Of a stretch of DNA of 64,000 nucleotides, positions 27,230-42,938 are shown in pieces. The notes under the pieces were generated by a model. It saw only the letters and a list, made by a program, of their open reading frames with translations. It did not search any database and was not told where the DNA came from. The stretch comes from Candidatus Hodarchaeota archaeon (lineage in GTDB: Archaea; Asgardarchaeota; Lokiarchaeia; Sigyniarchaeales; SOKP01). Both the position numbers and the translations under genes were made by a program. How positions within the stretch are numbered: position 1 is the first letter of the stretch; the number at the start of each line of letters is the position of its first letter. The stretch spans positions 170,958 through 234,957 of the forward strand of contig JBHLKM010000005.1 of NCBI GenBank assembly GCA_048886685.1. The letters are read 5' to 3'.

Positions 27230-30200
27230 TTGGTTTTGAAATTGAAAGATCTATTAAAATCCTTTAATCTCTCTGATGATGCGATAAAAATTTATCTTAA
27301 AGGAATAGGCAAATTTCCAATTACATTATCAGAAATACATAAGTTTGTACCAAAATCATCGATTGATGATGCTAAAGAAACTATGGATGAATTAATTAAT
27401 AAAAAATTAGTTATTGTTTTAAAAACTAAATTTTCCAACATTTTTCCTCATTATCTTTTTCTTCCTCCATTCGCAGCAGTAATTAATGCTTTCTCCAAAT
27501 TAGATGAAGATCCTGTTGAGAATATCCCTCAAGTTAAAGGAAACAACTCTGTGATTGAAAAATTTCAGAATAATTTATTATATGATATTGAATTGATTGG
27601 TCAAGATTTAATAGAAATAATTTCAGCTCAATCTGAAAGTCATCAGACTACAGAGATTTTATCTGAAGTTGAGAAAAATGTCAAGAAATTCTCTCAAGTC
27701 TTATTAACTGAAGTTAATGAATTGATTGCTAAATTAAAATCCAGATCTATTGTAAATGAAATCGATATTGAGCGTGTATTGAGAGCTGTTAACCAGAAAA
27801 TTGAAGAATCTGAAGAAATAATTTCTAACATGTTTACTCAATTTAGAGAAATCATTAGTGAGATGGATTCGGCTAACATACCTACTCAGATTGAATCATT
27901 TAAAACATTTATAAGAAAATTAGGTGAATCTATTGATAAAAGAAGTAATGAAATTTTTCAGAATTCAATTTTTTCATCTTTAAATAACCTTCAAATGGTT
28001 GAACAATCATTATTTAATGTATTAGTAGATTATATTAGCAAAGATCAGATTTCTGTTGATAAACTACTTCCCCTGTACAGTATTGAAAAAATAAAAGAAA
28101 TAATTGTCTTTTTATTAGAAAAATGTAAAGAAAAATTAACCATAATCGTTCCAAATATAGAAGATTTTATACCCTTAGAGGAATTTGATTTAGAATATTC
28201 TGAAGACGCAGATTCTGAACTTTCAACAAGAGAAATAGTGCCAACTCAAAAGAAACCAATTGTTCCTTCAAAAGGTAAGCCTTCTATTAGTAAACAACAG
28301 AAAAAAGAATTATTAGACAAAATCGACTTTACAGCAAAACGAGTACCTGATTTAAAAGGATATGAGTTGAGTCATGATGTCGCTGATATTCTGGCAATGA
28401 TTTCAGAGATTAATCCTGAATCTTCGATCATTGAGAATGTCCAAGGCTGGCTAAATAGATTATTAGTCATAAGGAAATATCTTGATCAAAACACACAATA
28501 TTTAATATTAGAGGATATTGAGAAATGGAAGAAAAATTATTTAAAAATTAAGAAAGAAGAAGAACCAGAACAAGTTGAACAGGAAGATACTGAGAGTGGA
28601 ATAAATAATGGAAGAAAAGTTGAAATAGGAATGAGTTCTAATGGATTGAAAATGAAAATAGTCTCTTCGGAATCTCATGACAATAAGCATGTTAAGGCCT
28701 TGAAAAAGAAATATATTGAATATCTATGGCTTAAAAATAATAATATAGTTGCAATTGTTGGGGATGATTTATACTTAGCATTGGGCATTTATCAAAAAAT
28801 TAAAAACGATTTTAAATATGAAATTATTGGTTTTACTACATCTTTTAAACCATTCATAGAGTTGGTACAACCAAATATCTTAAAAATTATCAATGATGCT
28901 AAACCAACTAGGGAAATTCAGATAAATAAAGGATTTAATGAAATTATAGAGCATATAAATGATTATAGTGGAAAAAAAATATCAACAAAATTAAAGAATC
29001 TACTTAATGTAGCTTTTGAAAATGATGGAATCTCCCTTAATATTTTAGAATTTAAGTTATTGGTTGGTAAGCTAGAAAAGTTTTATTATCCCTTAGAGGA
29101 TGATATGAAAGTATACATAATTGAACAATTAAATAAATTAAACAAAGAATTTTCTTCATTAGAATTAATATATCCACCAGAATTTAAACCTCCAATTATT
29201 GAAGATATAACAAGCATAGAATTAGAAAAAGACGTTGTTTTAGAGGAGAAAGAAATAGAACCGCTGGATACTGAGAAAGTTAATAACCTTTTTGATCTAT
29301 TTTTAGAAAAAATTGATGAATTTAAAGGGATAGAGCTAAGGGATCAAATTGATAAATTCATAGAGGTTATTTTAAAATTGCAAGGTTATTCAAAAATTGT
29401 TGACTGGAAGAATAATTTATCTAACATAGAAGAAGCATTAGATGAACCACTTAAAGAAAAAATAAAACTAGATTTTCTTACTTGGAAAAAAGGGATTTTA
29501 AATCCGACCCTAATCAAGGAAAAAATAAAAACAGAAGAATTAGTTAATCAACCATCAACTCAAAAAGATTATATGTCTGAAAGTGAAGAAGAATATATAA
29601 GTCCTGGATTATCACAATCACAGTTTCAATCAGATGACTTAATTTCTTCAGAAACTACTAATCATAGCGTTGCACAAAAAATTGATCCATCTGAAAAAAT
29701 GAAAAAGGAATTTGATGAAATAGAGAATAATTTCACAGAATTAAATGGTGTTGATATTAGTAAAAAAATGCAAAACCTCGTTGATATAATTTTAGAAACT
29801 GAAGGGTATTCAATGGATCTTAAAGATATCAAGGATTGGATAAATAAACTTAAAAGAATCAGAAAACCACTTGAAGATGAGATTAAAGAAGATTTTGTAT
29901 TATCCTTTTTCAAATGGAAAGAAAAATATGTAAAAGTAGACGCAAACAACCAGGTAATAGATTTTGAACCTTCTTTTGATAGTTCAGAAGATACACAAGA
30001 TGAGTTTGGTAGTATAAGCGGAAGTGGTCTAAGTGGTAAAATTGAGAGTCTAATTCAAACCACTAGCAATTCTACAGGGATTAAATTAAGTAGTGAATTA
30101 CAGGATATATCAGATATTGTTTTACGGTCTCATGGTGCTGTAGCTGCCAACGTGATTAGACAATGGATTAGTAAATTAAGATCTATTAGAGATCTCTTAG

Positions 30201-30262
30201 AAGATGAAATCAGAGAAGAGTTTCTCGAAGAATTAGAAAAGTGGAAAGAGAAATTCACATAA
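27230..30262 (+). CDS. 1010-aa protein: TrmB-like wHTH, coiled coil, PLD-like domain and five ~65-aa helical repeats
   Basis: LLKSFNLSDDAIKIYL...ELINKKLV; KEKLTIIVP; recurring G..(I/L)S...W...L....L(E/D)...KW unit. Confidence 0.6.
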   Translation: MVLKLKDLLKSFNLSDDAIKIYLKGIGKFPITLSEIHKFVPKSSIDDAKETMDELINKKLVIVLKTKFSNIFPHYLFLPPFAAVINAFSKLDEDPVENIPQVKGNNSVIEKFQNNLLYDIELIGQDLIEIISAQSESHQTTEILSEVEKNVKKFSQVLLTEVNELIAKLKSRSIVNEIDIERVLRAVNQKIEESEEIISNMFTQFREIISEMDSANIPTQIESFKTFIRKLGESIDKRSNEIFQNSIFSSLNNLQMVEQSLFNVLVDYISKDQISVDKLLPLYSIEKIKEIIVFLLEKCKEKLTIIVPNIEDFIPLEEFDLEYSEDADSELSTREIVPTQKKPIVPSKGKPSISKQQKKELLDKIDFTAKRVPDLKGYELSHDVADILAMISEINPESSIIENVQGWLNRLLVIRKYLDQNTQYLILEDIEKWKKNYLKIKKEEEPEQVEQEDTESGINNGRKVEIGMSSNGLKMKIVSSESHDNKHVKALKKKYIEYLWLKNNNIVAIVGDDLYLALGIYQKIKNDFKYEIIGFTTSFKPFIELVQPNILKIINDAKPTREIQINKGFNEIIEHINDYSGKKISTKLKNLLNVAFENDGISLNILEFKLLVGKLEKFYYPLEDDMKVYIIEQLNKLNKEFSSLELIYPPEFKPPIIEDITSIELEKDVVLEEKEIEPLDTEKVNNLFDLFLEKIDEFKGIELRDQIDKFIEVILKLQGYSKIVDWKNNLSNIEEALDEPLKEKIKLDFLTWKKGILNPTLIKEKIKTEELVNQPSTQKDYMSESEEEYISPGLSQSQFQSDDLISSETTNHSVAQKIDPSEKMKKEFDEIENNFTELNGVDISKKMQNLVDIILETEGYSMDLKDIKDWINKLKRIRKPLEDEIKEDFVLSFFKWKEKYVKVDANNQVIDFEPSFDSSEDTQDEFGSISGSGLSGKIESLIQTTSNSTGIKLSSELQDISDIVLRSHGAVAANVIRQWISKLRSIRDLLEDEIREEFLEELEKWKEKFT

Positions 30263-30714: not shown

Positions 30715-32922
30715 TTATATTTCTTTAGGAAAAATGACCAGTTCAGTAAGTTCATTTACTTTCATTAATTTCCTATTAATGAAAATCCTGACTTTCTCAG
30801 AAGTAATTTTAGGATTATTCATGAATAACTCTTGTACAATAATATGGCATTTTTTTCCTTTTTTTGCCAATTTTTCATGAATAGGATTATTTTCATTATA
30901 AATGGGAATTGGAAACATAAATGGTCTTTTATGAATATGTCTTGAACTTTTTATTTGCTTTATCTTTTTCGATAAATTAGGGGTGTTTAAAATCGCCGAT
31001 AAATAATAAGCTTCTTCTTCTGATTCAGTAGAATAATAATAATTTTCAGATCCGACAATAATAGTTTGATCTTCATTATTAATGACTGCTGCTTTTAAAT
31101 TAGAGCCACTTGCATTGTATACTGTAAGAAAGGATTTGTTATTAACTTGTTTATGCAATTTATTCCAATAATTCAAATTATCATAGAGAGTATCAATTTT
31201 ACTTGTCACTTTCTTATTTGCTTGGTAAATAGTGTTCATTTCATTATAAAAACTCTGAGCTTTTGGATATTGTTGAAGATAGTCAAGATCAAAATTAAAT
31301 CGAGTATTGATAGGTAAGAATACATCTTTTAATTGTTTTAAGTGAAAGGGGATAAGGTCTATGTTTAAAAATGTTTTAAAGTGAAACTTATCTTCAATTT
31401 CTTTATTTTTGAAAGGATGTAACCATTTTTCTTTAGCTCTGGATAATATATCAGGATCAGAATCGATTGTGAGATACCCATTTTTCTTATTTTTAATTTG
31501 AAAAAATATAAGTGTTCTCGGAACCAATGTGGCTCCCTGATAGAATTTCTTTTTATATGGGCTGTTCTGTAAATTATTTAACATCTTTAATTCATGAATA
31601 GGCATAATTAATTTCGCACCATTACCGTTATCATCGATTTTTAAACTTGAATATGATGTTTCCTTGATTAGCTCTGATTTATTATTAAAGATTTTTGTTT
31701 TAATGGGATATCTTTTTGTGATCGGTATGTAATTGTCTTTACCAATATATTCTGCTTTCAAACAAATATGTTCTACATTGAAAAAATAACTATCCGGAAA
31801 GTCCCAAATTTCTAAATTTGCATTAAATGAATAAAATGCTCGAAATTTGTAGCAATGATCCCCGTTTAATACGCTTTTAGGCATAACAAAAAATATCTTA
31901 CCCCCATTCTTTAAAAAATAAAAGGGAATTGCATAGAAGAAAATTCCTGCCAATTCTATATGCGTTATGTATTGACTTAATGGTTTAATCCTTAATAGAT
32001 TTGATAATTCACGAATTTTAATTTGGTATGCTTTATCGAATAAATCCTTATATGTTAACCATGGGGGATTACCTATAACCAAATCAAATGAATTAAATAT
32101 GTTATTCAATTGTAGATCTATTTTATTCTTACAATCATCTGGAAATAAAGAATCACAGAGGAAGACATTAATCTCTGGGAATTCCCCTCTTTTGAATTTA
32201 AAAAACTCAAGATAGATTAAAAGCATATTAACCTTTGTGGTAATAATTGCTAATGGATTAACATCAAATCCAAAGACGTTATTAATTGCCTTAATCTTAT
32301 TGGAAAGAGAATTTTTTGAATCAAGAATTTTAATAATGGTATTAATTAAAAAATTTCCCGAACCGCAAGATGGATCCAAAATTTTTAACCCAAATTCATA
32401 AAAATCCTCTAGCATTTTAGATACAAGGTGTGAAGGAGTAAAGAATTCCCCTCTTTTATGTCTTATGTTAGAAATAAATATATGTTGATAAAATTGACTG
32501 AAAATGTCTTGTTTTTCGGTTATAGGGTTTTCAATTTCATTATTTATTTTGTTAAGTATTTCTTCTTTAACTGATGTCCAAAAAAAGTATTTATATTCGA
32601 ATATTTTAAGTTTTTCAATTTCATTTTCTATAGGATTATTGAATATTTCTTTAAAATTGAGACCCTCGATAAAGCTTATTTTGGACATCACTAATATCTT
32701 CAATAAATGAACAAAATAGGTATGTTTTAAAAAAAGTTCAGAAGAAATTTCTTTACCATAAATATTAATAAATATTTTCTTCCATTTTTTAAAGTTAGGT
32801 TCGAAATTTACCTCAGAGATAGATCTCTCCTTAAGGAATTTCATAAATTCAGTATAAATCTCTGAATGTACGCCAAATTTTTTATCAATAATTTCGGAAT
32901 TTATTAAATTTTTGATTCCCAT
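30715..32922 (-). CDS. N-6 adenine DNA methyltransferase with C-terminal target-recognition region
   Basis: GEFFTP, LDPSCGSGNF, GFDVNP, FDLVIGNPPW. Confidence 0.9.
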   Translation of the reverse strand: MGIKNLINSEIIDKKFGVHSEIYTEFMKFLKERSISEVNFEPNFKKWKKIFINIYGKEISSELFLKHTYFVHLLKILVMSKISFIEGLNFKEIFNNPIENEIEKLKIFEYKYFFWTSVKEEILNKINNEIENPITEKQDIFSQFYQHIFISNIRHKRGEFFTPSHLVSKMLEDFYEFGLKILDPSCGSGNFLINTIIKILDSKNSLSNKIKAINNVFGFDVNPLAIITTKVNMLLIYLEFFKFKRGEFPEINVFLCDSLFPDDCKNKIDLQLNNIFNSFDLVIGNPPWLTYKDLFDKAYQIKIRELSNLLRIKPLSQYITHIELAGIFFYAIPFYFLKNGGKIFFVMPKSVLNGDHCYKFRAFYSFNANLEIWDFPDSYFFNVEHICLKAEYIGKDNYIPITKRYPIKTKIFNNKSELIKETSYSSLKIDDNGNGAKLIMPIHELKMLNNLQNSPYKKKFYQGATLVPRTLIFFQIKNKKNGYLTIDSDPDILSRAKEKWLHPFKNKEIEDKFHFKTFLNIDLIPFHLKQLKDVFLPINTRFNFDLDYLQQYPKAQSFYNEMNTIYQANKKVTSKIDTLYDNLNYWNKLHKQVNNKSFLTVYNASGSNLKAAVINNEDQTIIVGSENYYYSTESEEEAYYLSAILNTPNLSKKIKQIKSSRHIHKRPFMFPIPIYNENNPIHEKLAKKGKKCHIIVQELFMNNPKITSEKVRIFINRKLMKVNELTELVIFPKEI

Positions 32923-32980: not shown

Positions 32981-33526
32981 TTACTTTCTCATAAATGTTG
33001 GAAGCATGAAAGAAAAAATCTCTGCAATCTTCCTCAATTTTGCTTTCTCTTGTATAGTTGTGATAATTAATACTGATCTTGATAGCTCTTCTCTATCCAA
33101 AGAACCTCCAGAATAAATTGCTTGATTAGTATTGAACACTAATAAAAATCTCACATTGGGATTATTAATTATACTTATCCCTTCGGTAACCTTCAAATCA
33201 TCATAAATAGGTCGAAGGTTTTTTGGTAAATTTCCTCTATCATTTGTGATTAAAAGTACTGGAATCCCCTTTTGAGAAACTTTTTTTAATTCTTTAGAAT
33301 AGAACTCATCTATTTTCGGTGTAACAATGTTTAACTGCTCTTTAGTTGACGCAATCAAATTTAACAGTTGATCATTGAGCACATTTCTTTTCTCTAACCC
33401 ACCAGAAGATTCTATGTTAAACATACCTACTAATGTCATTATTTTATTTTCTAATGAAGCTATTTCCTGCTTCAAACGCTTATTTTCTACGCGTAACTCG
33501 AGTAATCGATCGGAAATCTCACCCAC
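32981..33526 (-). CDS. coiled-coil + PLD-fold protein lacking the HKD motif
   Basis: LIASTKEQLNIVTP, KGIPVLLIT, VRFLLVFNTNQAIYSGGSL in place of HxKxxxxD...GSxN. Confidence 0.65.
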   Translation of the reverse strand: MGEISDRLLELRVENKRLKQEIASLENKIMTLVGMFNIESSGGLEKRNVLNDQLLNLIASTKEQLNIVTPKIDEFYSKELKKVSQKGIPVLLITNDRGNLPKNLRPIYDDLKVTEGISIINNPNVRFLLVFNTNQAIYSGGSLDREELSRSVLIITTIQEKAKLRKIAEIFSFMLPTFMRK

Positions 33527-33713: not shown

Positions 33714-36305
33714 TCAGGAAATTAATTTTTTCCAGGGTTGTCCAAAGAGTAAAAAACTTGATACTGCTAAACTGCTTCTTAAGTCAATTCTTGCTACACC
33801 CTCTTTCTCTAATGAGTCTTTAAATTCTTGTTGCACAATTTCTTCCATCTTCTTTGCTATGCATTGTTGTCGAGCCTTAAGAAGTGATACTCCTTGACTA
33901 TTATTATTAAATAGATTAATAAAAAAGAATGAAGTAATATCTTTAGTTTCTTCGTTGAAAAGAGGGTATGTTCTTGAAATAATTCCAGTAAATTTGGTTT
34001 GATCGAATTGAGCAACGATCTCCCCAAATGTTTTGAGACCATTCTTTAGTTTTTGACCTTCTATATCAAAAATCTGGGCGTTAAAAAATAACAGAGGATT
34101 TAAATTCGAGTTATTTTGACTTAAAGTATTATTTATTTCTCTGAATGTAATGATTTCACTATCATTAACTAGCAAGTAGCTATCATTTGGGCTCCATTTA
34201 GAATAAAATATATTTCCTACAAATATAATAATATGATAAAAATCTTTTAACAGATGGTCAAAAAAATTATCTCGTGTCGATTTTGAGCCAATAAGCGTAG
34301 TAATTTGATTAACTTTGTCGGCATTATTAAAGAAATTGATAATATAGTTTACTTCATTCGCACCGGCAGTAAAAGGGTATATTAGTTCTTTTCTTTTCAA
34401 TTCATTATTCCATTTTAAAGGACTTGTAGAATTTATAGATTCAATTATTAAAACATTGAATTTTCCATTATCTTGCTCAACTACAGATTTAATTAAAGAT
34501 GCCTCTTCAAAAGAAATACCTCCAAGTGGTATTTCACCAATTTTATATCCAATAGAATATTTTAACAAGAAAAAATTATTATCGTATATCAAATCAAAAG
34601 GAATCGTCATATTATCTATAACAAAATAAATCTGAGGTATAGTTTTTAGACTTTCAATTTTAAAAGATTTAAAAAAATTTCTTATTAATTTTGGTAAAAA
34701 AATATATAATAATTCCCCAAATTCGTTAAGGTTAATTGTAAACTTTCTCTTTTCAGTCTCATAGAAAAGCTCATTATATATCTCTAATATTTGAGTATCA
34801 TTCCAATATTCATTAGTGATAATACCCTCTAAAATTTGATAATCTGTTGAAAAAATACGATACGATATCATCCCTTTAGAATTTATTCTTAGAATCATAT
34901 TATTAATAGAAAAACCTTCATTGTCTAATCTAAGAGAATTTATGCCGTCTTCAAATGAATAAATCTGACTTTTTAAAGGTTCTACTTCATTATATAAGGA
35001 TACAACATCTTTTATCAATTTGTTAAAATCCTTTTCAAGATAAAATATTATTTTTTGCGCTATTTTAAAATTCTTTTCTTCAAAAAGAGCACGATAGAAC
35101 ATCATTCTCCAAAAATCTCTTTGCTCTAAAGAGAAGAACATAGACTTGAATTGCCAGAGTAAATTACAGGTATAAAAATAATGAAAGATTTGAGCGCTCG
35201 TTTGAGGTATTTTTAAATGGTTATCTAGTTTTTCTAACGACTGTAATAAATACTTTTTCTCTTTCATTTCAACAAATTTTTTGCAGGCTTCAACCCATAG
35301 TTCAATTAAGATGTTGTCGTAGGAAAGATCTGTTTTATACATGAATAAATCTTCTAAGAAATCATAGATTTCAAAGGCTATTTCAAAGCGATTTCTATTA
35401 ATTGAAAAATCAATGAATTTCCGTATATAGGTAATTGCATCCCCATAAGATTGAAATTCTTGCATTTTTGAGAAAATATTCCTAATAATAATGATAATCC
35501 AGGAATATTCTCCTATGTCATTCAAATAATTTATCAGTTCCTCAAGATCAACCAAAATGGTACTAAAACTTCTTTCGTTGATCGCGATTCTACTAATACT
35601 ACTAAATTCGTTTTTTAAATACTGTGGAAGTCGATTGATCAGAATTTTATTTATAAATCTCACAAATTCTGAGGAATCTTCCATAAGATTATATTTAATA
35701 CAAACGTCCTCTAAAATCATATAAATGAATAACGTTCTCTTACTTGGTTCTAATTTTAACACAGTTTTACCTAACTTTTCCATACTTAAATGAAAAAATT
35801 CTGAAGGCGCTACAGATTTCCTTAGAAACATCAGTAAAATTTGTAATTCTATTAGCTTCTGGAATTCTTCTTTTTCATGTAATTTTACAGAAAAGGAATT
35901 AATGAATTTTGTTATTCCTTTCTGAGATAAATCTTCAATTTTTATAAATTGCTTAAGAAGGTTTATCCCAAAATTATTAAATAAATAAAAATCATCTAAG
36001 TTTGCTAAAAATGAAAAGAATCTTTTATACGCATCAATATATCTGATTAAATCAATTTTAACTTCTCCTTCTTCTCGTTTAACAAGCGAATTTAAATATA
36101 TCCACCAAGAGTTCGAGATTATCATTAATAATTGATGCTTTTTTTGGATGTCTAACCATTCATTTTTTTCTATATCCATTCTTAAATTTTCAAGTAAATT
36201 TGAAGCCCATTTATGATTAGCACCAAATAATAATTTCCGTGCTATTATTATTTTTTTTTGAAAGTCTGTTAAAAATTCCTGTTTTATATCTAAACTTACT
36301 GTCAT
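33714..36305 (-). CDS. helical-solenoid protein with C-terminal CHAT (caspase-like) domain, catalytic residues substituted
   Basis: FGELLY..LP, IPFDLIYD..FFLLKYSIG, GANEV, HIIIFVGN (vs HFAGH), LFFNAQ (vs FLNAC), SLLKAR, FLLFGQP. Confidence 0.8.
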   Translation of the reverse strand: MTVSLDIKQEFLTDFQKKIIIARKLLFGANHKWASNLLENLRMDIEKNEWLDIQKKHQLLMIISNSWWIYLNSLVKREEGEVKIDLIRYIDAYKRFFSFLANLDDFYLFNNFGINLLKQFIKIEDLSQKGITKFINSFSVKLHEKEEFQKLIELQILLMFLRKSVAPSEFFHLSMEKLGKTVLKLEPSKRTLFIYMILEDVCIKYNLMEDSSEFVRFINKILINRLPQYLKNEFSSISRIAINERSFSTILVDLEELINYLNDIGEYSWIIIIIRNIFSKMQEFQSYGDAITYIRKFIDFSINRNRFEIAFEIYDFLEDLFMYKTDLSYDNILIELWVEACKKFVEMKEKKYLLQSLEKLDNHLKIPQTSAQIFHYFYTCNLLWQFKSMFFSLEQRDFWRMMFYRALFEEKNFKIAQKIIFYLEKDFNKLIKDVVSLYNEVEPLKSQIYSFEDGINSLRLDNEGFSINNMILRINSKGMISYRIFSTDYQILEGIITNEYWNDTQILEIYNELFYETEKRKFTINLNEFGELLYIFLPKLIRNFFKSFKIESLKTIPQIYFVIDNMTIPFDLIYDNNFFLLKYSIGYKIGEIPLGGISFEEASLIKSVVEQDNGKFNVLIIESINSTSPLKWNNELKRKELIYPFTAGANEVNYIINFFNNADKVNQITTLIGSKSTRDNFFDHLLKDFYHIIIFVGNIFYSKWSPNDSYLLVNDSEIITFREINNTLSQNNSNLNPLLFFNAQIFDIEGQKLKNGLKTFGEIVAQFDQTKFTGIISRTYPLFNEETKDITSFFFINLFNNNSQGVSLLKARQQCIAKKMEEIVQQEFKDSLEKEGVARIDLRSSLAVSSFLLFGQPWKKLIS

Positions 36306-36326
36306 TAAATTGTTATTTCCTTATTT

Positions 36327-37514
36327 TTAATCATTATTTTGAATGGTGTTCCTTATTTCTTCTCCTGCGGAGAGTTTAGGGTTTTGTTCCCATCCTTTAC
36401 TTAATTTGCCTTGTGCCCATAAAACACTCGCTCCAACCCAGCTAATATTCTCTCTGCCTGAAACTGCCATTACATTAATTTTTTCTTTAATTCTTTCTGA
36501 GAAGAACTTTGAAATCTCAATTTTTAATCTCTTTTCAAATCCAGGGATCAAACTCCCGCCACCTGCGAGAATAATATTCGATAATAATTCTTCCCAATTT
36601 TCTCGATCCCATGTACGGATGACCTTAGCAATTGCTTCGGGTAAGCCAATATAATCAATATGAATTATTAATGGATTGAATAGAGGCTCTGAAATAAGAA
36701 ATCTTTCTGAATTAATTTCTAAACTAGACCCATCAGGTAGATCGATATTACTTGTGTACTTTGTAAAACCATCCTTTATTCGCCTGATTTCCTCCTCTGG
36801 ATCTAAAACACATAACGATAATTTATCTTTTATTTCCTTTGCAATGATATGATCAAGATAAATTGATTTTCCAGATCTAATTTTGGTTAAAAGTAAGTTG
36901 AGCAGATAATTGGTTATATCTTTACCCGCAACTGGATAAGTATCTCTTGCTATAACATTAGAAAAACCATGTAAAAATGATGTAATGTATGTATTTTCCT
37001 CGCCTATACTTACGATTACTCCACTTGTTTTCCGGAATGTAGATATTATTCCTTGACTTTCAGATATAAATAGAATACTTGGAAAATCAAACACATTAAA
37101 AAAAATATCTCTCAATTTAGTTTTCTCTAATTCAGGCATGAAGAAGGGTGTTATTATGATAATTGGTTGTTTAAATTGATTATTTTCCGATATTTCTAAC
37201 TCTTTATAATGATGATAGAAGAATTTCATCAAAATTGTAAAATTGTTTTCTTTTTTAAACTCATGTACTGTAAGTATATTGGAATATTTTAGCGCTTCAT
37301 GACCAAATAACTGACCCTCTACATTTTTTTCCTCCATAAATATATCTTCAAGACCATCAATTACATCTGAAGTAAAGAGATAATCGGTATTATCAACGTA
37401 GACACTAGGAGCAATAATATCTGGATAATCATTTCCTGCCCATCCCAATCGAAAAAAATTATTCCCTATATCGAGAATTAATGGACGTAATTGATTATTT
37501 TTTTCAGATGACAT
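36327..37514 (-). CDS. Asgard actin-related protein (divergent)
   Basis: LILDIG...LGWAG.DYP...PSV, AGKDITNYL, AKEIKDKL, LPDG...I.SERF..SEPLFNP, NIILAGGGS, SWVGAS. Confidence 0.92.
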   Translation of the reverse strand: MSSEKNNQLRPLILDIGNNFFRLGWAGNDYPDIIAPSVYVDNTDYLFTSDVIDGLEDIFMEEKNVEGQLFGHEALKYSNILTVHEFKKENNFTILMKFFYHHYKELEISENNQFKQPIIIITPFFMPELEKTKLRDIFFNVFDFPSILFISESQGIISTFRKTSGVIVSIGEENTYITSFLHGFSNVIARDTYPVAGKDITNYLLNLLLTKIRSGKSIYLDHIIAKEIKDKLSLCVLDPEEEIRRIKDGFTKYTSNIDLPDGSSLEINSERFLISEPLFNPLIIHIDYIGLPEAIAKVIRTWDRENWEELLSNIILAGGGSLIPGFEKRLKIEISKFFSERIKEKINVMAVSGRENISWVGASVLWAQGKLSKGWEQNPKLSAGEEIRNTIQNND

Positions 37515-37564: not shown

Positions 37565-38413
37565 TTAATACTTCATTTCATGAATTAAATCGTCTGTAAC
37601 TCTTTTTAATTGATACTCCTTAATTTGCAATTCTAATAAACCTAAAACTCTTTTAAATTTTCCAGACATAGATTCTATGTCAACTTCTGCCACTTTTTCA
37701 ACTTCATCGCGTTTAACTTTGAATAGCTCTAACTGCGATTGGATCTTTTTATATTGATTATTAATAGATACAACTAAATCTTCTGTATTTTTCTTGGTTA
37801 TTTTACGCATTTTTCTTAAAATAGCTAATATATTAGAAATAGAATTTTCCCATCTCTCATATCTCTCATTATAACTCTTTAACAATTCCTCAAAAAATAT
37901 CGTTAATTTGGCATAAATGTTATCTTTTTTAATAGAGGATTTTGTTTTTTTCTCTGGAGGTGTTGGAGCTATTTCTTCTTTAACTCCTATGACATCTTTT
38001 TCAACGGGAGGTACTGTTGAAGCTTCTATTTGAATCTTCGGAGGAAATGCAGTTTTAGGTTTTTCCTCGGTCATTAATGGTTTCGATTTTTCTTTGGATT
38101 CTGGGGCGACAATTTTCTCTCGTTTCTGGGATGGTTTTCTTTGTGCTAAAGGGACATCCTCTAAAGCATAAGCTTCTGCTATTTCACTTCTACTTTCGTG
38201 AGATAAGTGAGGTGTAATTTTTTCCTCTCCTTCTTTCTTAGGAAGCACAAATCCCTTTCCTTCGGTAGCCTCCTCCATTAAGCTCTGCAATGTTGTTTTT
38301 GTAGTTTTTGTTGAACTCAAGGCGTCATTTAAGGAATACCCTTGAATATCCCCTATCTCTTCAACTTCTTCAACAACTTTTTTTTTCTTTTCTTTTTTCT
38401 TCTTCTTCCCCAT
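37565..38413 (-). CDS. hypothetical protein: disordered Lys/Glu/Pro N-terminus, coiled-coil C-terminus
   Basis: Poly-Lys start, PPK/PPV/PTPP motifs, about 120-aa heptad-rich end. Confidence 0.75.
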   Translation of the reverse strand: MGKKKKKEKKKKVVEEVEEIGDIQGYSLNDALSSTKTTKTTLQSLMEEATEGKGFVLPKKEGEEKITPHLSHESRSEIAEAYALEDVPLAQRKPSQKREKIVAPESKEKSKPLMTEEKPKTAFPPKIQIEASTVPPVEKDVIGVKEEIAPTPPEKKTKSSIKKDNIYAKLTIFFEELLKSYNERYERWENSISNILAILRKMRKITKKNTEDLVVSINNQYKKIQSQLELFKVKRDEVEKVAEVDIESMSGKFKRVLGLLELQIKEYQLKRVTDDLIHEMKY

Positions 38414-38454: not shown

Positions 38455-38862
38455 TTATTCGAAAGGTAAGATATCAACATTAAGTGCCTTTCCGTTTTTT
38501 ATCAAACCTTCTCTTAATTCTTCCATTGTAATATTTTTAGGAGTTGGACTAAGTACCGTCCAAATTGCTGTTTTCGATTTTTCTAAAATGATACTCTCTC
38601 CCCACATTAAAGAAATACCAAATTCTCCAAAAACTGTTGCTATTTTTGCTAAAGATCCAGGCTCATCGACCATTGTTATCCTAAATTTAATAGGTTTATC
38701 TGCCTTCGAAATTCCTACTGGTGTTATTCGTATTTCCTTTGTTTCTGAATCGCTTACAAGCATTAGTTGGGAATCCGTTGTAATACCAAGATGTTTCCTA
38801 GTTACTAATGGAAGTACAATTCTCCCTCGATTATCTATGGATATAATTTTTACATCCTTCAT
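38455..38862 (-). CDS. AbrB/MazE-type DNA-binding domain fused to ACT domain
   Basis: IDNRGRIVLP..RKHLGI; DEPGSLAKIATVFGEFGIS. Confidence 0.88.
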   Translation of the reverse strand: MKDVKIISIDNRGRIVLPLVTRKHLGITTDSQLMLVSDSETKEIRITPVGISKADKPIKFRITMVDEPGSLAKIATVFGEFGISLMWGESIILEKSKTAIWTVLSPTPKNITMEELREGLIKNGKALNVDILPFE

Positions 38863-39014
38863 AGTTCTTAATATATTACTATTTCTTTTAATAATTACAA
38901 TATGGAAATAATTTTCTTATAAATATTAACGAAATTATTATTAATAATTTTAATGAAAACTTTCCAGAAAAGAAGTGTAAAACAGAAATAATATAAAAAA
39001 TTAAAATATAATAG

Positions 39015-41114
39015 TTATTCTTTATGAGCTTTTAACTTTACAGTAAGATCTCGAGCTCTTTTTGAATACCATATCAATAATTCTCCTGCATCTTCAGGCT
39101 CAAAATATTCTCCACCGCACAAAGACGCTGCTCGTATCATTAATTCACGATCTGGATTTCCAAGACCAACGATGTAGGTAACAACATTGGGATTATCAGA
39201 TAATTTTTTAATTTCACTTAAAAATAGCTCAGGATCCGTTGGAATTCCATCTGTCAAAAGTACTACCATATTTGGACTATCTGGACTGATCTGCTGGAAG
39301 TTTGCTAACACATTATTAGCTTGTACCATTGCAGCACCCATATTTGTGGCCTGTCCATATGCATTTCCAATTCTGTCAACAATCATACGTGCAGCATCCT
39401 CAAGAACGCCTTTTTTACCACTAGCGGAATCCATATAATAACTATTACCAAATGGCAAAATTTGTGCCTCGTCAGCAAATCGTATTACTGCTACTTTTTC
39501 TCCGAAACCTCTTCCAACCTTTTCGCTTAAAAATAAAACTGCAGCAAAAGCAGCAGATATCCGTCGGGGTATATTAATGCCATCCTTGAAATGTTTTAAG
39601 AACTCTTGAATTTCTCGAGATTCCATAGCCGCTTTTATTCCTTCAATAGCAGGAGCTATGTTTGTTACAAACACATCTCTTGCCATCATACTCCGGCTAA
39701 TATCTATTATTAAAATAGCGTTAAAGGGAACTAATCCTACTGGACTTAAAGTTAACGTAGTATTTTCAGTGACACTTGCAAAAATATCTCCAGTAAGATC
39801 AGGAACAGTCTCCAAAACCGAGCAAGCAATGTTTACAGCATTCCATCTTAACTTTATTCCCTTAAAGATAACGTAATTTGATATCCAGCTTTTCATAGAT
39901 GATACATTTTCTCGTGCAGTGCTAATAGTTTCCCAAATTGCTTCTCCCGATATTGGTGAAACACCCAAAGAAATATTCTGTAAAGGAATAATCGTTCTTT
40001 GATTCTTAGAAACTTTTACTTCAAAGCTTCCTATCCCAGAAGCTTCTAATATTTCACTATCAATGATAATTACATCATCTGGAGTTGATTCTAAAACATC
40101 TACTTTTCCAGCACCCATAGCTCCAGTTAATTCATCCTCGAACGCCAGAATATCATTTTGCTGAATTGAGAGAGAAAGCTGAGTTCTTGGGCTCACCAAT
40201 GCATATCCCATTAAATTAGGTTGGGATTCAACCTGTAACATTAATTCAGATACTTTTTCTATGGGGGGTTCTGTTGAATACACGACTACTTGGTCAGATT
40301 GAATATTGGTATCTTCATAAGTATCAAAACTCATCTTTATATCAGTCATAGCGATATTTGTTTCATCAATCCGAGCCGATCCCATAGACCTTGTTAAAGG
40401 ATCTTCCCAAGCTATTAACATTCCTCGACCAAGACCTAATTTTTGTATAATATTAGGACTTAATTGAACTCTTCCTCCTTCAATATTGTTATCCAATACA
40501 GGTTTAAGAATTATACCACGTTTTTGACTCACTAACGTATTGATATCGATTTTATTAGGGTAAGGTTCAACGGGAGCTGCTGGCTCAATCGAAGGTTGTG
40601 CTGAAGGTAATGGAGATAAGGAAGGCGGTGGTGCAGGAGCAGGTGGTGTTGGCGTGATTTGAGGTGTTGGTGTAAGCTGTCTGATTGGTTGAGGTATTGT
40701 AGTAGGTTGAGGAACTGGGGCTGGCTGAATCTGTGGAGGTGGTGCAGGTTGTGGAGTTGGTTGTTGTGCGGCTGTAGGTTGAGGAGGGAATGATTCAGGA
40801 GCGAACTGTTGTGTAGGAACTTTAGGAACTTGTTGTTCAAGTGAAAGGGAGGCAGCAGCACTAGCAAGACGCACAGTTAGCTCTACTCCTGAAAATTGTA
40901 AATCTTCAAGAATATTCTTTGCGAATTGACCCGCAAAATCTAACATGTCATTTGATATTTCTACGACAGCGACTTTTTTTAAGTTATTATCTAAATTAAT
41001 AATCTCTACTGAATCTCCATTTTTAACGCCGAGTTCATCTGCATTAGATTGACAAATTACGACTTTATTAGATATTTCATCACTAGCATCTACAAAAAGT
41101 TTAAGTTCTGCCAT
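39015..41114 (-). CDS. Cdc48-N-like double-psi barrels, proline-rich linker and vWA domain
   Basis: ADELGVKNGDSVEI, IQKLGLGRGMLI, LSLSIQQNDIL; P/Q-rich linker; MIDAS DISRS, ATNMG, LTDG. Confidence 0.78.
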   Translation of the reverse strand: MAELKLFVDASDEISNKVVICQSNADELGVKNGDSVEIINLDNNLKKVAVVEISNDMLDFAGQFAKNILEDLQFSGVELTVRLASAAASLSLEQQVPKVPTQQFAPESFPPQPTAAQQPTPQPAPPPQIQPAPVPQPTTIPQPIRQLTPTPQITPTPPAPAPPPSLSPLPSAQPSIEPAAPVEPYPNKIDINTLVSQKRGIILKPVLDNNIEGGRVQLSPNIIQKLGLGRGMLIAWEDPLTRSMGSARIDETNIAMTDIKMSFDTYEDTNIQSDQVVVYSTEPPIEKVSELMLQVESQPNLMGYALVSPRTQLSLSIQQNDILAFEDELTGAMGAGKVDVLESTPDDVIIIDSEILEASGIGSFEVKVSKNQRTIIPLQNISLGVSPISGEAIWETISTARENVSSMKSWISNYVIFKGIKLRWNAVNIACSVLETVPDLTGDIFASVTENTTLTLSPVGLVPFNAILIIDISRSMMARDVFVTNIAPAIEGIKAAMESREIQEFLKHFKDGINIPRRISAAFAAVLFLSEKVGRGFGEKVAVIRFADEAQILPFGNSYYMDSASGKKGVLEDAARMIVDRIGNAYGQATNMGAAMVQANNVLANFQQISPDSPNMVVLLTDGIPTDPELFLSEIKKLSDNPNVVTYIVGLGNPDRELMIRAASLCGGEYFEPEDAGELLIWYSKRARDLTVKLKAHKE

Positions 41115-41343
41115 ATTTATTCATTAATTTTACTCTATTTTTTAATTTAATATAAGTGATGTAGATTAAAATTTCTATCAATTAATCTTTAACAGTCTTT
41201 ATTAATAATAAACTAATATCAGTATAAGATATTTATCAAGAATTGATAAACTTATCCATATAAATAAATTTGTGCGAAAAATAATTAAAGAAAAAAAAAA
41301 AGAATTATGATTTAAGTAAAATTTGTTTTCAGATTTAACCTTA

Positions 41344-41469
41344 TTATTGTTGTACTGCTAGTATTTCTGCCTCAGAAACCATAAGATCATACTTATAAAT
41401 GTATCCCTCAATTACATGAAATCCTGCCAAAAATCGGGTGATATATGTTAATGCTTCCTCTAAAGACAT
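41344..41469 (-). CDS. unannotated 41-aa protein
   Basis: Manual translation MSLEEALTYITRFLAGFHVIEGYIYKYDLMVSEAEILAVQQ** with double TAA; coding-like composition within AT-rich flanks. Confidence 0.55.
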   Translation of the reverse strand: MSLEEALTYITRFLAGFHVIEGYIYKYDLMVSEAEILAVQQ

Positions 41470-41579
41470 ACATTTATGTTAAAAAAACATGATTTCTTTA
41501 CTAAAATTTACACACAGAAATAGAATGTAAAGTAAAGATTAAGTGAGAGAAAATGATGAAAAAATGAAATTTTTTAACT

Positions 41580-41966
41580 CTATTTGGGATATCTTTTACT
41601 TATTTCACCTGCATAATATCTGAACACCTTTACAACTTTTCCGAGTTCAGGCATTTGTCTGGATGCGCCCATTAAGAAAAATCTGCCAGCAGCACTGAGT
41701 ATAATAAAACCATTATCGCCACGTAAAATTACCTCCATCATATTATTATAACCGAGAGAATTTATCGCATCATCTCCAGATTGGACAACCACTGCGCTCA
41801 AACTTGAGAATAAATCAGGATCAATAGCATATCCTGGAATTGCGCTAAACGCAAGACGGAGCCCTTCCCGTGTGATTAAAGCTAAGGCTTCTAAATCGGA
41901 ATATTCAGTTATACTAGATAAAAATGTCGAAAGAGAATGCGCTTCTTCTGGAGTTAATTCAGCCAT
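41580..41966 (-). CDS. Roadblock/LC7 (MglB-like) protein
   Basis: LEALALITREGL, FSSLSA, EVILRGDNGFIIL, PELGKV. Confidence 0.88.
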   Translation of the reverse strand: MAELTPEEAHSLSTFLSSITEYSDLEALALITREGLRLAFSAIPGYAIDPDLFSSLSAVVVQSGDDAINSLGYNNMMEVILRGDNGFIILSAAGRFFLMGASRQMPELGKVVKVFRYYAGEISKRYPK

Positions 41967-42098
41967 AATGAATTAAATTTTTTTTTATTCAATTAATAAT
42001 AAGTAAAAAATTTAGACTTAAAAAATTATATTTTGCGAATATTTGAAATTTTAAACTTCTTTAAATAAAATAAGAGAAATTAAATTGAAAAAATTTAC

Positions 42099-42938
42099 TT
42101 AACTACCTTCTAATTGTTGTTTAATTTGATCTTTTAATAACTCTCGTTTTGATTTTCCTTCTACTGGAGTAGATGGTCGGCCAGTACGTTTAAGAAACTC
42201 TATTGCTAATATCTTTCCCTGTTCTGACAAAATTCGAGGGCTGTAATTCTCAGCGAAGAAGATTCCCTCAGGGATCGAACCTACTTTCGAGATTTCTTTA
42301 GTAACCTGCTTTTCCCCTAAGAATTGTTGTACTTTTTCAACGACAGAATAAGCTTGGTTTCCAATTATTATTAATTCTCTTTCAAAACCAGTAGGTATCT
42401 TAATTTCTTCTAATTTCGCCATAATCTCTTGAAAATCGATTTGAGTCTCCTCTTGCATATATGCTGCCATCGAATCGTCTCCTCTATATAAAGGACCTGC
42501 ATTTTGTGCTGCTAGTGTTTTACTCCCTGCAATATTCATTCCGTTAGCGGGTTCTGGAGCTCCAAAAATATTCCTTTCCCTCAATGGATGAACGCTTGGT
42601 GGAGCCATTGGTTCACCTTTTATTTCTTTAGCAATTCCCGCTTTTGTTCTTCCACCAATAAGATTTATAAATTCAGCATCCTCATCACCCTCGTCAAGAG
42701 GTATTACACTATAATGCATTCCCACTTGACCACGAATTTCTTGAGATCTTTTCGCACCAATAAACTTGGATCTAACACTACTTTTAACACCCTTCCAAAG
42801 ATAAACCTTTCTAGCATCATCAGCAACAAGGACATAACACTCGTCAGTTTTTAACATATCCTTAATTGAACCTTCAGTTGTCAGTTCGGTTGTTGTTCCA
42901 TCTGGATTAATAAGAAACAATTGCGTTATTTTAATCAA
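42099..42938 (-). CDS. single gelsolin-domain protein with C-terminal extra domain (1DGelX-like)
   Basis: LKTDECYVL, KVYLWKG..SS..SKFIGA, LDEGDEDAEF. Confidence 0.85.
   Translation of the reverse strand: MIKITQLFLINPDGTTTELTTEGSIKDMLKTDECYVLVADDARKVYLWKGVKSSVRSKFIGAKRSQEIRGQVGMHYSVIPLDEGDEDAEFINLIGGRTKAGIAKEIKGEPMAPPSVHPLRERNIFGAPEPANGMNIAGSKTLAAQNAGPLYRGDDSMAAYMQEETQIDFQEIMAKLEEIKIPTGFERELIIIGNQAYSVVEKVQQFLGEKQVTKEISKVGSIPEGIFFAENYSPRILSEQGKILAIEFLKRTGRPSTPVEGKSKRELLKDQIKQQLEGS

Follow-up and report, generated by a model that had tools for sequence, protein, structure and literature searches.

CHAT domains are found as effectors both in type III-E CRISPR and in CBASS (the cyclic oligonucleotide-based antiphage signalling system). 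In TPR-CHAT (Csx29) of the type III-E system (Craspase), and likewise in the prokaryotic proteins SAVED-CHAT, DdvA and HetF, a two-lobed CHAT domain is combined with an N-terminus made of helical repeats. A comparable layout, a solenoid followed by a C-terminal caspase-like domain, is that of separase (Esp1/ESPL1), an active protease with an intact His-Cys dyad; securin, which lies along both its solenoid and its active site, is held by it as a pseudo-substrate and not cleaved. Pseudo-caspases, such as cFLIP and the pseudo-protease domain within separase, have lost the dyad while their caspase fold stays under selection; the dyad-less fold serves binding, not cleavage, and these proteins pair with an active caspase-fold domain. 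The protein described here, pCHAT, shares features with each of these systems. Its gene lies in a stretch of 64,000 nucleotides (positions 170,958 to 234,957 of contig JBHLKM010000005.1 from Candidatus Hodarchaeota archaeon; hereafter the window), which is AT-rich (about 30% GC), and it directly follows the gene of a divergent actin-related protein (ARP). By its sequence, pCHAT is very probably a pseudo-protease kept for a non-catalytic job, and its gene behaves with that of the ARP as a two-gene unit. What, then, is the significance of preserving the fold of a protease beside a member of the actin family?

CHAT homology and domain layout of pCHAT

The initial annotation of this locus proposed a helical solenoid joined to a CHAT domain, as in TPR-CHAT proteins and separase, and this layout stands, with AlphaFold2 (AF2), Foldseek, VIA-align and hhalign in agreement. 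The gene and its parts, with the basis of each assignment in brackets, are the following:

33714..36305, including the stop codon, minus strand: pCHAT, a solenoid plus CHAT/caspase-fold protein of 863 aa, predicted to be catalytically dead (open reading frame (ORF), homology and AF2 model)
34965..36305, minus strand: N-terminal helical solenoid, residues 1-447 (AF2 secondary structure and conservation)
34737..34907, minus strand: small beta/alpha middle domain, residues 467-523 (AF2 model; outside the hhalign CHAT match)
34467..34736, minus strand: CHAT N-terminal lobe, residues 524-613 (alignment and hhalign)
33717..34466, minus strand: lobe of caspase-hemoglobinase fold, residues 614-863 (VIA-align match to SAVED-CHAT)
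34212..34214, minus strand: codon of Asn698 at the catalytic His position, FVGN standing opposite AGH (MAFFT and hhalign)
34074..34076, minus strand: codon of Gln744 at the catalytic Cys position, FNAQ standing opposite NAC/NSC (MAFFT and hhalign)

In the AF2 model of pCHAT (predicted local distance difference test 77, predicted template modelling score (pTM) 0.65), some 24 helices span residues 5-447 and a two-lobed alpha/beta CHAT domain extends to the C-terminus; two solenoid motifs, HxWA (31-34) and FWxxxxxRAxFEE (398-410), are kept throughout the family. The C-terminus proved to be a caspase fold: with residues 614-863 as the query, VIA-align placed SAVED-CHAT (8tl0_C) on top, with a Z score of 16.7 and a root-mean-square deviation of 3.2 over 187 aa, and gave Z scores of 13.8 for metacaspase and about 12 for caspases. 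Foldseek searches with the full-length model pointed to Csx29/TPR-CHAT (4.9e-8) and to the TPR-CHAT anti-sigma factor DdvA (4.6e-7), and the separases of human, yeast and worm followed with weaker E-values of 2e-5 to 3e-3 (best 2.2e-5).

Homology to the CHAT family is also real at the level of sequence, though weak for the window sequence alone. PF12770 is matched by 22 of 39 close homologues (best E 1.3e-6), a profile of the family aligned by hhalign with three true CHAT proteins with a probability of 98.8% (E 5e-17, residues 527-865) and with P0179, a Lokiarchaeial CHAT protein of 1012 aa, with one of 97.2%, and the language-model neighbours of pCHAT are likewise CHAT clusters. The profile homology to true CHATs thus extends over about 340 residues, and the motifs follow each other in the same order: an EIPWE-like motif, the H..GH strand, P..S, the NAC strand, GxAL..AR and LxGdP. 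In the N-terminal lobe, the conserved IPFDLIYD of the pCHAT family aligns with EIPWELM of true CHATs. The first strand of the caspase lobe is followed by a conserved, family-specific insertion, SPLKWN... (624-646), which distinguishes the family from CHAT proteases. As for the solenoid, hhalign found no sequence homology to that of true CHAT proteins, the matches beginning at about residue 527.

Despite the common layout, no specific kinship with separase beyond the general CHAT/caspase fold was found at the sequence level: a search of PDB sequences with the family profile gave only a chance match to eS24 and none to separase. Nor was any evidence found that would make pCHAT an ancestor of separase.

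The altered catalytic dyad

That the catalytic His position reads FVGN (34212-34223) and the Cys position FNAQ (34074-34085) had been noticed beforehand, and the ORF coordinates, the MAFFT alignment and hhalign all bear this out. The alignment set three true CHATs against the window pCHAT and 17 relatives of full length, the most distant being 16-25% identical. Whereas the true CHATs all keep the dyad, none of the 18 family members has the dyad His or Cys; across the family, the His position is taken by N, Y, V, S or T and the Cys position by Q, R, K or L. Both hhalign runs pair the residues identically, setting GN opposite GH and NAQ opposite NAC, and no other His or Cys within residues 455-863 is conserved across the family. 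The protein is nevertheless far from decaying: the ratio of non-synonymous to synonymous substitution rates (dN/dS) against four relatives is 0.06-0.08, which indicates strong purifying selection, and the flanks of the dead site (690-713, with segments 690-712 and 699-713) together with the insertion (619-646, with segment 619-633) rank among the best-conserved stretches of the protein family-wide.

Because Asn and Gln stand in for His and Cys, pCHAT is predicted to be unable to cleave peptide bonds by the clan CD mechanism; with fold and profile homology present and the dyad absent, it would be a homologue of the CHAT family and not an active member. The proposal that it is a pseudo-protease has thus gained considerably, since the dyad is lost family-wide, no substitute His or Cys has taken its place and purifying selection is strong. 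The family is already catalogued, but as a peptidase: what appears to be the same family bears the label "caspase family peptidase" in asCOG/arCOG, an annotation that the predicted inability to act as a clan CD peptidase would correct. If so, pCHAT would be one more case, here from an archaeon, of a protease fold put to use as a scaffold. Searches of the literature on Asgard CHAT, separase, pseudoprotease or ARP clusters returned no paper noting either the dead dyad or the linkage to the ARP.

Linkage to an actin-related protein and the proposed complex

A possible partnership between pCHAT and the product of the adjacent actin gene had been suggested beforehand. The genes concerned, and those that regularly accompany them, are these:

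36327..37514, minus strand: ARP, a divergent actin-related protein of 395 aa (Pfam Actin, E 5.8e-45; orthologue of UYP47647.1 of 'Ca. Lokiarchaeum ossiferum')
36306..36326, minus strand: spacer of 21 nt from the ARP stop to the pCHAT start, in frame, with a second TAA inside
37565..38413, minus strand: cc282, with a Lys/Glu/Pro-rich N-terminus and a helical C-terminal domain, the conserved upstream neighbour
38455..38862, minus strand: small AbrB/MazE-like plus ACT protein (AbrB-ACT) of 135 aa (NF006352, E 6.5e-22), at the head of a tight co-oriented run
32981..33526, minus strand: PLD181, 181 aa, with a leucine-zipper-like N-terminus and a weak PLD-like domain, the conserved downstream neighbour

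The ARP gene ends in TAA and the ATG of pCHAT, which lies downstream, follows 21 nt beyond, just as the initial annotation had stated; the gaps within the run AbrB-ACT, cc282, ARP and pCHAT measure 41, 50 and 21 nt. As a genomic link, the partnership is well borne out. The ARP stands directly upstream of pCHAT in 43 of 44 testable loci, that is, in 28 of the 29 loci with enough flank among 30 further ones and in all 15 testable fetched loci with a family member (L032, L034-L043 and L047-L050), and 19 more pairs are evident from consecutive NCBI locus tags in two lists of homologues. The whole order AbrB-ACT, cc282, ARP, pCHAT, PLD-like is preserved across the 15 loci with long flanks, including those whose pCHAT shares only 21-27% identity with its window counterpart. 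At the sole exception (L014; G224:C35, 1-1488), the ARP is found upstream on the same strand, but at a distance of 3.9 kb that holds small opposite-strand ORFs and may represent an insertion. Spacer lengths between the two genes fall between -31 and 87 nt; many genomes have 21 nt and several 1-3 nt, and in two the genes overlap by 4 nt.

The two genes are also absent together, nine genomes without pCHAT lacking an ARP orthologue as well. In four of these, from a sister family, cc282 and the PLD-like gene are directly adjacent to each other, and the genomes hold only Lokiactin and two or three other actin paralogues. The remaining five belong to the window's family and are 94-99% complete; the PLD-like gene is missing from four of them too and lies at a contig edge in the fifth, so these absences may be deletions or assembly gaps. 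Given the adjacency, the close spacing and the joint presence or absence between cc282 and PLD181, the ARP and pCHAT behave as a two-gene unit. The identities of the two proteins to their window counterparts are correlated (r 0.98, mean difference 1.7 points), a figure that adds nothing beyond shared descent, since r with PLD181 is 0.97.

The ARP itself is the most divergent of the four actin-family genes in the window's genome, 27% identical to the genome's own Lokiactin and about equally distant from eukaryotic actins. Throughout the set of orthologues, the loops that bind phosphate and the residues corresponding to Q137 and H161 of actin are altered, and subdomain 2 has an acidic insertion. 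These features and the match to Pfam Actin mark it as a member of the actin-fold family distinct from the filament-forming Lokiactin.

How could a dead protease serve such a protein? By their gene arrangement, pCHAT and the ARP would be made from one transcript, probably by coupled translation, and we propose that pCHAT then works as a non-catalytic partner or scaffold of the ARP, which would be held by the solenoid, by the conserved groove around the dead site, or by both. Alternatively, what is clamped there might be an extended stretch of the ARP or of the Lys-rich cc282 with its probably disordered N-terminus, much as separase holds securin as a pseudo-substrate. This would amount to an ARP complex peculiar to the Lokiarchaeales lineage. 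On balance, the genome context leads us to lean towards a pseudo-protease scaffold that physically partners the ARP. The clamping of a peptide by the dead site, and any effect on the Lokiactin cytoskeleton, are inferred only. Accordingly tentative, and possible rather than probable, is the fuller version of this scheme, in which the ARP and pCHAT would form an obligate heterodimer, possibly with cc282 and the dead PLD protein, the former separase-like protease clamping a loop or tail of the ARP or a segment of cc282 in its dead groove and thereby positioning or regulating Lokiactin filaments in Lokiarchaeales. Such a heterodimer, if real, would be an ARP complex not known before, and pCHAT the first partner assigned to any Asgard ARP; the literature searched yielded no assigned function or partner for Asgard ARPs besides Lokiactin.

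Several observations weigh against a scaffold in contact with the ARP. The window pCHAT on its own stays under every Pfam, NCBIfam and PADLOC threshold. The residues at the dead dyad vary between families, so that any use of the site does not depend on these two side chains. From adjacency and co-occurrence a functional link follows, but not necessarily contact. An AF2 model was also made of a fusion corresponding to the natural in-frame read-through (the ARP, 8 aa and pCHAT 1-455, with TAA read as Gly and a partly paired alignment), with the caspase domain left out and no predicted aligned error; it reached a pTM of 0.57 with a disordered linker, where about 0.5 was expected for undocked and at least 0.7 for docked partners.

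It is from these last two points that the most credible competing explanation draws its strength, namely that the proteins belong to the same pathway and are co-regulated without binding each other, the dead CHAT serving, for example, as a scaffold for cc282, for PLD181 or for a regulator of Lokiactin. The link is shown by genome context only, the fusion gave no confidently docked model, and cc282 and PLD181 are conserved neighbours just as the ARP is. However, it is the ARP and pCHAT that come and go together between cc282 and PLD181, and spacers of 1-3 nt and overlaps of 4 nt are typical of subunits made together; their divergence also tracks at about 1:1, though shared phylogeny alone would give that. 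Co-regulation without contact is hence somewhat doubtful, while still deserving to be taken seriously.

The other explanations concern what the caspase fold is for, and each fares worse than the scaffold of the ARP proposed above. The best structural matches of pCHAT are the defence proteins Csx29 and SAVED-CHAT, a PLD-like gene adjoins it, the 735-aa gene further downstream matches models of type IIG restriction-modification and MADS methyltransferases, and the cluster is missing from some genomes and bears one insertion of 3.9 kb within the pair, all of which would suit a mobile or anti-virus defence module. Yet PADLOC matches neither pCHAT nor the ARP, cc282 or PLD181, both would-be effector domains have no catalytic residues, the locus is single-copy and fixed in three families (116 of 132 genomes in the window's family), as fits vertical descent, and its neighbours in the window's family are roadblock and gelsolin-like genes. 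For these reasons a role in defence is unlikely. Unlike Csx29, pCHAT has the ARP as its conserved partner, and its neighbours (AbrB-ACT, cc282, ARP, PLD-like and methyltransferase genes) include neither the Cas7-11/gRAMP and Csx30/31 encoded with Csx29 nor any CRISPR or CBASS gene. Pseudo-caspases most commonly act on an active protease of the caspase fold, either as its decoy or as its allosteric regulator, cFLIP and caspase-8 being one such pair, and some related genomes do hold a second, true CHAT gene. The window's genome, however, is 100% complete and has no match to PF12770 or to PF00656 (Peptidase_C14), so pCHAT would not be the decoy of an active paralogue there, and the true-CHAT relative in another order (genome G124) has no ARP beside it; this role is accordingly very unlikely. 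Scarcely credible is persisting proteolysis by non-canonical residues, for which only the good conservation of the scaffold motifs around the site could be cited. The dyad positions vary, and the only His and Cys residues of the domain in the window protein, H684, H691 and C815, are not conserved; in the AF2 model they lie, respectively, in a helix, just before the strand of the His position and in the long C-terminal helix.

Cultured relatives, distribution and neighbouring genes

Asgard archaea encode several ARPs besides Lokiactin, and one of them now has a co-inherited and, by its gene arrangement, co-transcribed partner of recognisable architecture. The pair is present in 'Ca. L. ossiferum', where the published primers used for reverse-transcription quantitative PCR (RT-qPCR) of UYP47647.1 match exactly inside the ARP gene adjoining pCHAT, so that the partner ARP is UYP47647.1. 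This protein groups with ARPs, and RT-qPCR of all four L. ossiferum actin homologues found Lokiactin to be the highest, several-fold (PMC9834061). Supplementary Table 2 of the same study lists, as consecutive orthogroups of L. ossiferum and P. syntrophicum, Hef helicase, PHP, an uncharacterised protein, Actin, CHAT and PLD (PMC9834061). This order matches that of the genes at pCHAT loci; the CHAT orthogroup is almost certainly the pCHAT family, and the pair appears to be present in 'Ca. P. syntrophicum' as well. With the pair in cultured strains, the hypothesis of an ARP-pCHAT partnership is directly testable. In L. ossiferum (L034, 10700-11800, minus strand), the ARP frame is open for about 363 codons, some 56 of which precede the first ATG, GTG or TTG; for translation to begin at the annotated start that the primer numbering implies, a non-canonical start codon would be required.

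Close homologues of pCHAT number in the hundreds, 60-90% identical and all of about 860 aa, and a scan of 1.8 billion representative proteins returned only 62 relatives. Among 398 genomes of the phylum, the full-length protein is confined to the window's order of Lokiarchaeia, where it occurs in 116 of 132 genomes of the window's family, in the single genome of a second family and in 7 of 14 of a third; beyond this order, the set gave only generic matches to the C-terminal CHAT domain, among them the 1012-aa relative in G124, whose His and Cys are intact and which has no actin gene beside it. Across the three families pCHAT is single-copy at the same locus, and its identity falls in step with that of its neighbours, which fits vertical descent. 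The NCBI organism labels were not used for the distribution: homologues that are 70-86% identical to each other are labelled Thor-, Hod-, Hermod-, Heimdall- and Odinarchaeota, and genome-based placement puts these same homologues in one family, making the labels unreliable for taxonomy.

As to the neighbours, the N-terminus (165 aa) of the coiled-coil protein cc282 is Lys/Glu/Pro-rich and probably disordered, and its C-terminal domain (about 166-278) is helical and conserved; searches of Pfam and the PDB found no relatives. Conceivably, cc282 serves pCHAT as an extended ligand, bound by the solenoid or in the dead groove. PLD181 has no His at all and hence no HxK motif, and would therefore be a second pseudo-enzyme of the cluster. 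Downstream of it lies the 735-aa gene (30715-32922, minus strand), a type IIG/MADS-like N6-adenine methyltransferase in which a nuclease domain was not detected; within the window's family this neighbour is conserved, but the loci fetched from the other two pCHAT-carrying families gave no match to it. An ORF of 1010 aa on the plus strand (27230-30262) has no significant Pfam match. Upstream, in a co-oriented stretch (38455-42938, minus strand) that is syntenic in the window's family, lie genes for a gelsolin-like protein (Pfam E 0.0025, under the cut-off), a Roadblock/LC7 protein, a CDC48_N-like plus vWA protein of 699 aa and AbrB-ACT.

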